Virus record (IMG/VR): IMGVR_UViG_3300013383_000248
Reading direction: 5' to 3' (one strand)
From: a virus
DNA: 64,000 nucleotides
Made by a program: the position numbers and the translations under genes. Positions within the stretch are counted from its first letter, which is position 1. Every line of letters begins with the position of its first letter. The notes beneath the pieces were generated by a model. That model had not been told where the DNA came from. It did not search any database and saw only the letters and a program-made list of their open reading frames with translations. This document shows, in pieces, positions 44,798 through 45,722 of the stretch.

Positions 44798-44838
44798 TGG
44801 TCCGGATGACAGGATTTGAACCTGCGGCGTCTTGATCC
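44798..44838 (-). tRNA. 3' half of a split tRNA gene (anticodon-stem 3' strand, T-arm, acceptor, CCA)
   Basis: GGATCAAGACGCC-GCAGG-TTCAAAT-CCTGT-CATCCGG-A-CCA. The acceptor CATCCGG pairs with CCGGATG at 45716-45722. Confidence 0.5.
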
Positions 44839-45677
44839 AGAGAACAATGTTTATTAAATATTACCCCAATCTATATCAGAATATTTATTAATTTCTGTTT
44901 TTTTAAAAGGCAAATTCATAGATTTACACCATTTACGGATAGCATTATCACTAACATTATACATTTTACCAATACTTACAAAACTTTCTTCTCTAATCAT
45001 TTTTTTTGACTCCTCTCTGTCTGGTCTACCTACTTTTCTAGTAGTTATACTATAACAGTTTGGACATAATCCATTTTTAGAATTTTTTGTAATCTATATC
45101 CCACAGATAGAACAATAAAAATTTTCTTTAAATTTCTATTTATTTTTATTAGTTTCTTCTATTCTTAATTTCATTCTTTCTTCAAATTCTTTTTTAGAAT
45201 TTAAAAAATTTTGAGATTGAGGAATAATTTTTTCTATTTCATAATCTTCAGCTTTATTATAATTATTTGTTCCGTTTTGAGGAGGAGCAAATCGTAAAGT
45301 TTTACTAGAAGAACATTCTTCTACGGGAATTAAATAAACTTTATTATTATAATAAGTAGCAAAATAATCTATATCTTCTATAGAATAACTATGTCGAGTT
45401 GTTTTTTTTGTATTGGTTGTTTGAGATGATGTTGTAATTTGAATAGCTGAAAAATCATAACTATTTTCAATACTATCTTTTTTTCTAGGATGAACACATG
45501 ATTTACATTGAATCCTTAATAATTTTCCATTAATATCTGCAATGAAATCATATTTAGCTCCATTTCCATAAGGAATAGAAACTTCATAACCTAATTCAGT
45601 AAATTTAGATAAACATTGTAATTCTACAATATTACCAATAGATTGAGTATAATTCATTAATATAATTATTTAATAAA
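44839..45677 (-). mobile_element. About 840 bp insertion in the anticodon loop of a tRNA gene, almost entirely a homing-endonuclease-like ORF (intron or disrupting insertion)
   Basis: It is flanked by the complementary tRNA halves, including matching anticodon-stem strands CTTGAT and ATCAAG. Confidence 0.45.
44854..45657 (-). CDS. Homing-endonuclease-like protein: PD-(D/E)xK-like nuclease core, CxxC...CxxC zinc ribbon and C-terminal HTH; 2 TAG codons
   Basis: ORF 45136..45657 ends at a TAG. Read-through gives ...(Q)KFKENFICSICGI(Q)ITKNSKNGLCPNCYS..., which continues into ...SFVSIGKMYNVSDNAIRKWCKSMNLPFKK. Confidence 0.45.
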
Positions 45678-45722
45678 TTTGCTTTCCAAATCAAGCGCGA
45701 TACCAAACTTCGCCACATCCGG
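45678..45722 (-). tRNA. 5' half of the split tRNA gene (acceptor, D-arm, anticodon-stem 5' strand)
   Basis: CCGGATG-TG-GCGA-AGTTTGGTA-TCGC-G-CTTGAT-TT|... Confidence 0.45.

Follow-up and report, generated by a model that had tools for sequence, protein, structure and literature searches.

A phage tRNA-Pro(UGG) gene split by a homing-endonuclease insert: candidate member of a proposed ribozyme-less intron class defined by a helix across the insert junctions

To our knowledge, all described tRNA introns of bacteria and phages are self-splicing, mainly as group I introns, and the literature that we searched gave the same picture. Protein-catalysed tRNA splicing is regarded as a trait of archaea and eukaryotes, and we know of no EndA in bacteria. 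Among the self-splicing introns, the one that encodes the endonuclease I-Ssp6803I in the tRNA-fMet gene of Synechocystis comprises 655 nt, with an ORF of 150 codons and a ribozyme of about 200 nt (PMC1995217). Archaeal BHB introns, which are cut by EndA and sealed by RtcB and in some cases carry homing endonucleases, canonically occupy position 37|38 of the tRNA (PMC4090602). Phage tRNA clusters additionally contain free-standing homing endonucleases such as T4 SegB and the F-Tfl enzymes of T5, and phage tRNA repair by T4 Pnkp and Rnl1 or by RtcB reseals anticodon loops that were cut by host anticodon nucleases.

The locus described here lies in the IMG/VR virus record IMGVR_UViG_3300013383_000248, of which a stretch of 64,000 nt, hereafter the window, was analysed. 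Positions 44798..45722 of the minus strand contain one whole tRNA that is interrupted by an insert. ARAGORN in intron mode reported a single split tRNA at exactly c[44798,45722], which was overlooked in a default run. The elements of the locus, in the order of transcription, are:

45686..45722, minus strand: exon 1 of tRNA-Pro(UGG), nt 1-36 (5' strand of the acceptor, D arm, 5' strand of the anticodon stem, U32 U33, UGG); from ARAGORN -i, fold and loop-masked similarity
44838..45685, minus strand: 848-nt intervening sequence between tRNA nt 36 and 37; from the junction test and the empty-site allele in a cultured relative
45679..45685, minus strand: intron i1-i7 (AAAGCAA), 5' strand of helix 1; pairs with 44841..44847, with covariation in the family
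45667..45678, minus strand: unpaired A (i8), then 5' strand of helix 2 (TTTATTAAATA); from the fold
44854..45657, minus strand: putative homing-endonuclease ORF, 267 codons plus TAA, with PD-(D/E)xK domain (PF11645) in residues 1-~145 and Zn ribbon with DNA-binding tail in ~176-267; from Pfam, PHROG and PDB matches
45136..45138, minus strand: in-frame TAG, codon 174, directly after the nuclease domain; from reading the ORF
45094..45096, minus strand: in-frame TAG, codon 188, within the Zn-ribbon segment; from reading the ORF
44848..44860, minus strand: 3' strand of helix 2 (TATTTAATAAA, containing the TAA stop), then unpaired CA; from the fold
44841..44847, minus strand: intron n-9..n-3 (TTGTTCT), 3' strand of helix 1; from pairing and covariation
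44838..44840, minus strand: last three intron bases CUG, a codon-like triplet paired with the anticodon UGG (U34·G, G35·U, G36-C); from pairing and covariation
44798..44837, minus strand: exon 2 of tRNA-Pro(UGG) (G37 A38, 3' strand of the anticodon stem, variable loop, T arm, 3' strand of the acceptor, A73, CCA); from ARAGORN and the joined fold

Exon 1 reads CCGGATG TG GCGA AGTTTGGTA TCGC G CTTGA TTTGG from 45722 to 45686, and exon 2 reads GA TCAAG ACGCC GCAGG TTCAAAT CCTGT CATCCGG A CCA from 44837 to 44798. The initial annotation had assembled a cloverleaf from these two flanks, and every stem that it named was found, with the CCA end encoded in exon 2. Joining of the halves at 36|37 produces a canonical tRNA-Pro(tgg) of 77 nt with the loop UUUGGGA and the junction …CUUGAUUUGG|GAUCAAG… (CTTGATTTGG|GATCAAG in DNA), which combines a cloverleaf and a 7-nt loop with U33, the anticodon UGG, G37 and a tRNA-Pro-like body. 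With the loop masked, the top seven of 489 intact tRNAs in similarity were all Pro(tgg). The anticodon had been considered ambiguous and possibly Arg-UCU, an assignment that the joined fold and the loop-masked similarity replace with Pro-UGG. ARAGORN itself called Ser-GGA for the window gene and Asp, Tyr or Phe for split genes of relatives; these calls were rejected as register errors, and identities were re-assigned by a brute-force junction test together with loop-masked similarity. No exact match to the 33-nt exon 1 was found in IMG/VR, and a comparison of the tRNA cluster with cultured phages by blastn returned generic tRNA similarity only.

The size of the insert, initially put at about 840 bp, was measured as 848 nt, nearly all of it one ORF; very little sequence lies outside the ORF, as had been noted, with 28 nt upstream and 16 nt downstream of it. 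The ORF product matched Pfam PDDEXK_5 (PF11645) over residues 4-141 (85.4 bits against a curated cut-off of 26.1, E 4.9e-24) and the PDB entry of I-Ssp6803I, 2OST (E 2.8e-4). Its YD…D…QxK aligns with 2OST, and E12, D37, D41, Q50 and K52, the putative catalytic residues of this fold, are invariant across five diverse homologues. One homologue (L001) extends over the full length of the ORF with 48% identity. The C-terminal part with CxxC...CxxC matches the corresponding C-terminal module in a PHROG that carries the annotation HNH endonuclease. On the basis of these matches, the ORF is predicted to encode a PD-(D/E)xK homing endonuclease of the I-Ssp6803I family with a Zn-ribbon/DNA-binding tail; of the composition proposed initially, the nuclease and the Zn ribbon were recovered, while the HTH found no confirmation in Pfam. 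ARAGORN in intron mode, the junction at 36|37 and the PF11645 match thus bear out the earlier description of a tRNA split in its anticodon loop by a homing-endonuclease ORF, and both in-frame TAGs of that description are present. The window contains a tRNA(CTA) at 42709..42783 and its ORF coverage is much larger when TAG is read as sense, by which the phage is evidently TAG-recoded. Because of the two TAGs, full-length endonuclease would be produced only once the suppressor tRNA of the phage is available, and before that translation would end after the nuclease domain, with a form of 173 aa. Judged from its sequence, the locus combines a phage tRNA-Pro(UGG) gene with a mobile insert that contains little beyond an endonuclease gene of the I-Ssp6803I family.

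The split arrangement is not due to chance because it recurs in 75 independent loci. Phage tRNAs that are split by an inserted endonuclease gene numbered at least 75 and covered 11 tRNA identities; endonuclease and tRNA have the same orientation in 74 of the 75 loci, and without duplicate junctions 53 distinct cases are left. With the junction set at 36|37, the loop is canonical in practically every case. The cloverleaf is perfect and the U33/R37 loop canonical in about 95% of the inserts with recognisable flanking halves, across endonucleases that are 55-98% identical. Degenerate members also occur, with a chimeric acceptor stem in L086 and a decayed 3' half in L026 and L028. The split gene was the sole copy of its anticodon nearby in 69 of 71 cases. 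In 34 of the loci surveyed, a PDDEXK_5 gene lies directly beside an intact tRNA. The presence of tmRNA and ROOL RNA in the tRNA arrays, and of an Enterococcus phage among the members, points to bacterial hosts. Candidate ORF-less derivatives, i.e. 'short introns' of 50-75 nt reported by ARAGORN in the arrays, were discarded as they look YrlA-like or tRNA-like, and a DUF2828 protein had no relative in the PDB, and no link of it to Ro60 emerged.

In the predicted precursor, the ends of the intron prolong the anticodon stem through pairs of U33 with R37, of the anticodon with the final three intron bases and of i1-i7 with n-3..n-9. One helix thus contains both junctions, on opposite strands and 3 bp apart, corresponding to a 3-nt 3' stagger. 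Across the class, the pairing between the anticodon and the last three intron bases is formed to 98% (34:n 100%, 35:n-1 95%, 36:n-2 100%; i1:n-3 likewise 100%), compared with 32-45% in slid-register controls. The 3' intron triplet co-varies with the anticodon over the 11 tRNA identities with a covariation score of 0.876, which none of 500 shuffles reached (0.224 in shuffles). G·U pairs outnumber A·C pairs by 59 to 12, therefore indicating selection on the sense strand. A mini-precursor of the window folds into the junction helix with a z score of -4.2, and the terminal duplex has a z score of -3.0 in the intron state and of -1.3 in free-standing homologues (p 2e-4), so that by this measure the duplex is specific to the intron state. 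The A/CA 1x2 loop and helix 2 are common to 29 of the 53 relatives. In the Thr group, helix 1 of the intron copies the anticodon arm of its own tRNA with a shift of 1 nt; as a general rule, the helix as a copy of the anticodon arm was rejected, being true of the Thr group only.

A member of the class is present in the cultured Enterococcus phage EFP01 (NC_047796; host Enterococcus faecium), where it splits a tRNA-Asn gene at 105242..105777 and its endonuclease is gp109. In 29 sister phages the site is empty, with flanks of 97-98% identity, and comparison with the empty site of phage iF6 places the insertion point unambiguously at 36|37 (joined exon junction …CUGUU|AACCAGU…). The insert entered without change to any exon base and, from this comparison, is a recent acquisition in one of 30 Schiekviruses. 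Such a presence/absence polymorphism lends indirect support to the proposal that the endonuclease cleaves the intron-less tRNA gene at the anticodon and drives homing. The viability of EFP01 is uninformative because phage tRNAs are often dispensable. In some Schiekviruses, an F-TflIV-like HNH gene adjoins the tRNA-Asn gene that is split in EFP01. The RefSeq record of EFP01 lists just a 'hypothetical protein' for the insert.

Together, these features point to a third option beside the group I intron and the disrupted tRNA considered in the initial annotation, namely a ribozyme-less intron class defined by its helix. We assign a probability of about 50% to the reading that the insert is a mobile intron that proteins excise from the RNA by way of this helix before the exons are ligated. 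In such a scheme, the endonuclease would cut intron-less tRNA genes in the anticodon region and thereby spread the element at the DNA level, and in the pre-tRNA a protein endonuclease would act on the helix and cut both junctions. The cutter could be the intron's own dimeric nuclease or another enzyme of phage or host. I-Ssp6803I cleaves DNA with 3-nt 3' overhangs flanking the anticodon, and the own nuclease is a candidate for the RNA cutter because this geometry is the same as the stagger of the helix; on an intron-less tRNA gene, the predicted cuts would fall at 36|37 of the top strand and at 33|34 of the bottom strand. PD-(D/E)xK enzymes are DNases leaving 5'-P and 3'-OH ends, which cannot be joined by RtcB and need no kinase, and we know of no endonuclease that makes cuts staggered by 3 nt in the two strands of an uninterrupted RNA helix. 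A Pfam scan of about 20 proteins of the window, which is part of the genome, revealed no EndA-type splicing endonuclease. RNase P/Z-like recognition of the helix ends was rejected, since the overhangs vary from tRNA to tRNA and do not resemble CCA. After cleavage, the tRNA body would keep the exon halves together and an RNA repair or ligation pathway would seal them. The window encodes a T4-Pnk-like kinase between two metallophosphoesterases; neither an RNA ligase nor RtcB was found in the 64 kb, where only a DNA-ligase-like gene is present. EFP01 encodes RtcB, which also occurs in intron-less Schiekvirus-like contigs and therefore has no specific link to the insert, and a search connecting RtcB to intron-bearing contigs yielded close Schiekvirus relatives only.

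Self-splicing after all, by a cryptic group I intron, initially proposed in a compact or ORF-overlapping form, or by a novel small ribozyme that overlaps the endonuclease ORF, would agree with the residence of the nearest characterised relative, I-Ssp6803I, in a tRNA-fMet group I intron (PMC1995217). It would likewise agree with the cyanobacterial-type intron L125, which served as positive control and gave an Rfam group I match of 59 bits with the core downstream of the ORF. However, the group I covariance model (RF00028, Intron_gpI) detected no core in the insert, with no match at E<=10 between positions 44300 and 46400 and no core in 8 related inserts (Rfam, E<=1-10), at an imperfect sensitivity that left undetected two tRNA-Leu(UAA) introns, probably of the classical type, which related contigs carry (L026 757-1173 and L023 428-1227). 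Group I introns follow a terminal U of exon 1 and end in G; the window insert does end in G, but its exon 1 ends in G36. Among the 53 relatives, the last intron base is A in 34, G in just 10 and C in 9, whereas exon 1 ends with U in 35, G in 14 and C in 4; both boundary bases simply track the anticodon. The 5' exon pairs with the 3' end of the intron, not with a 5' internal guide sequence. A group I intron needs about 150-200 nt or more of structured non-coding RNA, for which the two short ends of the window insert have no room; inserts of the Thr group (463-482 nt) have 12-26 plus 6-13 nt outside an ORF of 130-150 codons, with less than 40 nt beyond the ORF in those of 463 nt, and synonymous entropy is flat along the ORF. 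Our survey shows the inserts to be a widespread class without a detectable group I ribozyme, and we regard self-splicing as very improbable.

The main rival to protein-dependent splicing, in our view unlikely yet to be taken seriously, is that the insert is never spliced and that a selfish endonuclease gene invades and inactivates phage tRNA genes, which is tolerated as host tRNAs suffice. The terminal helix might then insulate the ORF during processing of the array by RNase P/Z, contribute to stability or release of the mRNA, or allow autoregulation through binding of the endonuclease. No splicing machinery was identified, the genome is by eye rich in other homing-endonuclease genes, and the decayed or chimeric members fit such a course. 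The histories of exons and introns are decoupled (Mantel r 0.20, p 0.10); therefore, intact exons could reflect repeated invasion of fresh genes, as in the recent acquisition by EFP01, and not selection after insertion. A continuous stem starting from the insertion point must moreover include the anticodon, and covariation of the anticodon alone is therefore no proof of splicing. On the other hand, inactivation does not explain the near-universal integrity of the exons or the conserved, covarying helix between anticodon and intron 3' end, and the split gene is almost always the only nearby gene for its anticodon. In each lineage the helix spans both junctions and has been re-tuned to 11 anticodons, which would be needless for a stem that closes an mRNA, and the free-standing homologues are expressed without such a helix. 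The pseudogenised tRNA of the initial annotation is in line with this rival and keeps its modest share of probability, with these regularities left unexplained. Even less weight than self-splicing is given to a hairpin that acts in DNA, in which the inverted termini in single-stranded DNA would mimic the target of the endonuclease and permit precise excision or insertion, making the helix a mobility signal. The element does move among tRNA genes that share little but the anticodon arm, EFP01 exons were unchanged by its entry, the Thr group carries a copy of the arm, and G·T is the most tolerated mismatch in DNA, by which the G·U excess could fit a hairpin of the top strand. However, the sequence mimicry is limited to the Thr group, cut-and-paste would by our own derivation produce overhangs that fit at one end of the element and not at the other, the endonuclease family is not known to have a transposase-like function, and the shared orientation with the tRNA is expected of a role at the RNA level. 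An origin of the terminal triplet by fill-in of DNA overhangs or by cut-and-paste was rejected, as by our derivation the anticodon should then be repeated directly, whereas the repeat that is seen is its reverse complement.

Protein-dependent splicing would break the rule that tRNA introns of bacteria and phages self-splice and would provide RtcB and Pnkp of phages and bacteria with a physiological substrate. More tentatively, and with the odds leaning against so complete a picture, the inserts may be a new intron class with the first cut-and-ligate tRNA splicing of archaeal/eukaryal style in bacterial viruses, in which a pseudo-symmetric helix serves as substrate, the anticodon reads a codon-like triplet at the intron 3' end, and the own PD-(D/E)xK endonuclease may double as splicing endonuclease, with the helix mimicking its DNA target. 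This would offer a testable path from a DNA homing endonuclease to an RNA splicing enzyme, and the cultured phage-host pair makes the question of splicing directly testable. Even if unspliced, the element would represent a gene drive aimed specifically at phage tRNA arrays, and split tRNAs of this kind are overlooked by standard annotation.

With the I-Ssp6803I intron of Synechocystis, the phage insert shares the endonuclease family, the anticodon loop of a tRNA as host site and a mobile ORF in a tRNA gene. It differs in having neither a core nor the space for one, in intron ends that pair with each other and with the anticodon in place of P1/P10, in the extra Zn-ribbon/DNA-binding tail of the endonuclease, and in its site at 36|37, whereas the cyanobacterial-type L125 is compatible with 33|34 to 35|36 only. 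Free-standing homing endonucleases likewise live in and target tRNA arrays, as do the PDDEXK_5 genes of L001, between tRNA-Cys and tRNA-Pro, and of the haloarchaeal virus HSTV-4, after tRNA-Asn. These are intergenic and interrupt nothing, whereas the window ORF, which unlike that of L001 is not free-standing, lies inside a tRNA and is accompanied by a junction-spanning helix. Phage tRNA repair has the sealing chemistry that a protein-dependent splice needs but is known solely for mending damaged tRNAs and not for any part in splicing, and we infer a possible link of these enzymes to the intron. The intervening sequences that RNase III excises from bacterial rRNA resemble the phage inserts in the long helix formed by insert ends in a structural RNA and in having no ribozyme; however, the cut rRNA stays in pieces, and a tRNA left in that state after a cut in the anticodon loop would not function. 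RNase III itself, which cuts with a 2-nt stagger, was rejected as cutter by inference from the junctions, whose spacing is 3 bp and whose dyad falls on a base pair. Archaeal BHB introns differ in their 3-nt bulges around 4 bp, compared with junctions 3 bp apart in a continuous helix, and in their position at 37|38 as against 36|37; the hosts of the phage inserts are bacterial, and the BHB register, when forced on the window, gives mismatches in our sequence check. Both have a pseudo-symmetric helix at the junctions, no ribozyme and a loop with room for an ORF, and the phage inserts would likewise be cut on opposite strands, with 3' polarity, and depend on a separate ligase. The fold of EndA is derived from PD-(D/E)xK nucleases (PMC3424549), and if the phage endonuclease did act as splicing enzyme, it would be a living analogue of this proposed link.

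The reported locus is a tRNA-Pro gene interrupted in its anticodon loop. With default settings, ARAGORN found six minus-strand tRNAs between 41.4 and 46.4 kb and left this site blank; once introns were allowed, an extra gene appeared at exactly c[44798,45722], with an insert of approximately 846 nt in the anticodon loop. The label Ser-GGA assigned to it by ARAGORN was rejected because it rests on a shifted stem. The gene is composed as follows:

45722..45686, minus strand: exon 1, CCGGATG-TG-GCGA-AGTTTGGTA-TCGC-G-CTTGA-TTTGG
44838..45685, minus strand: intron, 848 nt; 28 nt precede the ATG, and 16 nt separate the stop codon from the 3' junction
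45657..44854, minus strand: endonuclease ORF, 267 codons, in-frame TAG at codons 174 and 188
44837..44798, minus strand: exon 2, GA-TCAAG-ACGCC-GCAGG-TTCAAAT-CCTGT-CATCCGG-A-CCA

Read on the minus strand, the flanks form the complete cloverleaf of the initial annotation with all helices named there, and its approximately 840-bp insert, nearly all one ORF with 20-40 nt of other sequence and two TAGs, corresponds to the structure listed here. When the insert was deleted with all boundary pairs within ±8 nt and canonical cloverleaves were retained, a junction after nt 36 gave a 77-nt tRNA-Pro(tgg) whose loop reads UUUGGGA. Among 489 intact tRNAs from related loci, the seven closest to it once its seven loop bases were masked were all tRNA-Pro(tgg), which excludes the Arg-UCU anticodon considered previously.

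Residues 1-145 of the endonuclease match Pfam PDDEXK_5 (E 4.9e-24), the N-terminal part also matches the I-Ssp6803I crystal structure (2OST), and the C-terminal part contains CxxC…CxxC and matches the C-terminal module in a PHROG with the annotation HNH endonuclease, in agreement with the proposed PD-(D/E)xK-like nuclease with a Zn ribbon. The C-terminal tail is coding, since a full-length homologue with 48% identity exists (L001). The window contains a suppressor-type tRNA with anticodon CTA (42709..42783, minus strand), and reading TAG as sense raises its summed ORF length from 45 kb to 74 kb, indicating that the phage is TAG-recoded and reads the endonuclease TAGs as ordinary sense codons. 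The genes of the window split sharply into many without in-frame TAG and others with up to 12, a distribution that, together with the tRNA(CTA), is in keeping with TAG recoding and code-dependent timing in this phage. Because the first endonuclease TAG comes just after the nuclease domain, standard-code translation would yield a 173-aa protein, about the size of the short endonucleases in 460-490-nt inserts.

Other parts of the window also carry endonuclease-like ORFs. A PhoH-like gene looks split (20415..22960, minus strand), probably by another endonuclease-bearing intron or intein:

22115-22960, minus strand: PIN and PhoH profile positions 8-65
20872-21636, minus strand: LAGLIDADG-looking ORF between the PhoH parts, recognized by eye
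20415-20756, minus strand: PhoH positions 96-199

Four further homing-endonuclease-like minus-strand ORFs were seen by eye (532-1323, 6536-7432, 13430-14140 and 35204-35944), one LAGLIDADG-like and three GIY-YIG-like, most with in-frame TAG; one sits between gyrA-like (10538-12919) and gyrB-like (14283-15812) genes.

Searching IMG/VR, JGI/ENA metagenomes and GTDB genomes with the nuclease-domain alignment recovered about 140 loci, nearly all within phage tRNA arrays. The endonuclease gene lies inside a split tRNA in 75 loci, on the same strand as the tRNA in all but one, and beside an intact tRNA in 34; 17 lie too near a contig end for a call, and 16 lack an adjacent ARAGORN-recognized tRNA, some of these being split tRNAs that ARAGORN missed (L047, L126 and L059, by eye). 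After removal of duplicates, 53 distinct split cases remained, comprising Thr-UGU (19), Pro-UGG (11), Lys-UUU (8), Asn-GUU (5), Glu-UUC (3), Gln-UUG (2) and one each of Asp, Ile, Ser-GCU, Arg-UCU and His. A 36|37 junction restores a canonical loop (U33, purine 37; G37 in Pro only) in essentially all of them. The cultured Enterococcus phage EFP01 (Schiekvirus) carries gp109 (PDDEXK_5, E 1e-27) inside a split tRNA-Asn(GUU), while 29 sister phages have an uninterrupted tRNA-Asn with 97-98% identical flanks. The filled site of EFP01 and the empty site of its sister phage iF6 align precisely (…GGCTGTT|[463 nt]|AACCAGT…), without duplication, deletion or exon change, so that the insertion site is unambiguous, and the comparison shows a very recent gain. 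In RefSeq (NC_047796.1 105242..105777; L133 2426-2961), only the 'hypothetical protein' gp109 is annotated and the split tRNA is not. In some sister phages the tRNA-Asn is intact and, in place of the insert, an F-TflIV-like HNH gene lies next to it. In Halorubrum virus HSTV-4 (L147, NC_062763.1 53933-54469), a free-standing PDDEXK_5 homologue, of a kind carried by haloarchaeal tailed viruses, lies 3 nt downstream of tRNA-Asn(GTT), and the association with tRNA genes thus spans bacterial and archaeal viruses. The related arrays contain other RNAs as well. One with a split tRNA-Lys (L003) has a strong ROOL RNA (337 bits) and a tmRNA start (1012-1620 and 6281-6411). Full-length, sub-threshold matches to the Y RNA-like family YrlA occur inside the phage tRNA arrays, both that of the window (44580..44699, minus strand; 33 bits, gathering score 69, E 7e-5) and those of relatives (L002 5359-5474, L003 2177-2276, L007 1324-1390); tRNA-like RNAs of this kind also seem to underlie the 'tRNAs with 50-75-nt introns' that ARAGORN reports in related arrays.

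The two ends of the insert, 5' (i1, i2…) and 3' (n, n-1…), pair with each other in all lineages, in a helix that extends the anticodon stem. Across 43 distinct junctions, pairing was 98% for 33:37, 100% for 34:n, 95% for 35:n-1, 100% for both 36:n-2 and i1:n-3, and 79-91% for i3 to i6. All ten intron-involving pairs show two-sided changes, the covariation score was 0.876 compared to 0.224 in shuffles (0 of 500 as high), and sliding the partner by 1-3 columns lowered pairing to 32-45%. The final intron triplet acts like a codon for the host tRNA: AUA or ACA for anticodon UGU, CUG or CUA for UGG, AAA for UUU, CAA for UUG, GAA for UUC, CAC for GUG, AGA for UCU and AGC for GCU. G·U pairs exceed A·C pairs 59 to 12, indicating that the transcribed strand is under selection. 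In the window, CUG (44840..44838) pairs with the anticodon via U34·G, G35·U and G36-C, and TTGTTCT (44847..44841) pairs with AAAGCAA (45685..45679), followed by a 1×2 loop (A / CA) and a second helix of TTTATTAAATA with TATTTAATAAA, the latter including the stop codon. A mini-precursor adopts exactly this fold (-45.7 kcal/mol, z -4.2), and 29 of the 53 cases, with Thr, Pro, Asn, Ile and Ser hosts, share the A/CA loop and second helix. The terminal helix goes with the intron state: without the anticodon triplet, the 5'/3' duplex has a mean z of -3.0 in intron copies versus -1.3 in free-standing homologues (p 2e-4).

A compact or ORF-overlapping group I intron, as suggested initially, is not borne out. 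Rfam scans of the window (E up to 10) and of eight related inserts detected no Intron_gpI. The core was recovered, at 59 bits, from L125, where a tRNA-Met gene of cyanobacterial type contains a 623-nt intron together with a distant homologue of the endonuclease. The L125 layout agrees with the published Synechocystis intron of 655 nt with a 150-codon ORF (PMC1995217). Two inserts of 336 and 713 nt in tRNA-Leu(UAA)-like genes of related contigs (L026 757-1173; L023 428-1227, identical to L098 128-927) were likewise missed, with no Intron_gpI reported at E<=1. They lie at the classical U34|A35 position and are probably conventional group I introns since they end in G (…GTAGTAAG). As Rfam is thus not fully sensitive, the structural arguments weigh more. 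In Thr-group inserts (463-482 nt), the ORF takes up all but 12-26 and 6-13 nt, and synonymous codon entropy is even throughout this ORF (0.72-1.13 bits; proteins 55-98% identical). Group I chemistry requires that the intron end in G, and normally the 5' site also has a U·G pair. The terminal intron base is G in 10 of 53 cases and the terminal exon-1 base U in 35; both simply track the anticodon.

The preferred reading of the covarying helix is helix-directed protein cleavage followed by exon ligation. The helix would present both junctions to a dimeric protein endonuclease, for which the intron's own enzyme would be an economical candidate, and the tRNA body would keep the exons in place for ligation. 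A rival model, in which the insert is an unspliced parasite and the helix serves array processing or handling of the endonuclease mRNA, survives because any stem that begins where the insert entered has to take in the anticodon, irrespective of the function of the stem. However, the helix has been re-tuned to 11 anticodons, free-standing endonuclease copies lack it, the cloverleaf is intact in about 95% of split hosts, and in 69 of 71 cases no second gene with the same anticodon lies nearby. Intact exons may in part reflect fresh invasions, as the element clearly hops between tRNA alleles: exon and intron identities are barely correlated in the Thr group (r 0.20, p 0.10), and the gain in EFP01 is recent. 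The few decayed hosts also accord with a parasite; in L026 2250-2900 / L028, the 3' half of tRNA-Lys has decayed while the endonuclease is intact. In L086, the two strands of the acceptor stem derive from different tRNA-Thr alleles, which may represent partial co-conversion or an assembly chimera.

For splicing by protein cleavage and ligation, any further factor must be generic, because EFP01 gained only the 463-nt insert. Enzymes that could contribute to sealing are present in both phages. The window encodes a gene set resembling RNA end-healing functions (27874..30409, minus strand):

27874-28419, minus strand: metallophosphoesterase
28404-29063, minus strand: T4-Pnk-like 5'-OH polynucleotide kinase (PDB 1LY1/1LTQ, E 8e-8)
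29211-29945, minus strand: second metallophosphoesterase
29966-30409, minus strand: NADAR protein

The best solved relatives of the kinase are T4 polynucleotide kinase and the kinase domain of Clostridium thermocellum Pnkp. EFP01 encodes RtcB. Cleavage by a PD-(D/E)xK nuclease is expected to yield 5'-P/3'-OH ends, a combination that RtcB does not join, and neither an RNA ligase nor RtcB was found within the 64-kb window, so that the proposed chemistry of cleavage and sealing does not yet close. At 30762..35052 (minus strand), the window encodes a pair of proteins unusual for a phage, an 823-aa major-vault-protein-like protein with MVP shoulder and vault repeat domains and an adjoining DUF2828/DUF7788 protein; no solved relative of the DUF2828 protein was found.

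Both junctions lie in one helix, each 3' of the 3-bp anticodon:triplet segment, giving a 3-nt 3' stagger with a pseudo-dyad on pair 35:n-1. A bulge-helix-bulge motif was rejected, as there are no bulges and the junctions are 3 bp rather than 4 bp apart, and so was RNase III, with its 2-nt stagger. I-Ssp6803I cuts its DNA target with 3-nt 3' overhangs flanking the anticodon, and the matching stagger of the helix is a lead. In the left half, RNA helix and DNA target necessarily agree in sequence because nt 37-43 complement nt 27-33, and a significant copy of the right half was found in the Thr group only. Full-text literature searches returned the classical I-Ssp6803I case, introns in protein genes of recoded phages and bacterial tRNA group I introns, with a new insertion site, 35/36, in Patescibacteria (PMC13011429). 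They returned no ribozyme-less endonuclease inserts in phage tRNAs. We class the locus with the mobile tRNA introns, as a variant not previously described in the literature searched; judged from sequence, the chance is substantial that bacterial viruses have here a protein-dependent splicing system of a categorically new kind.
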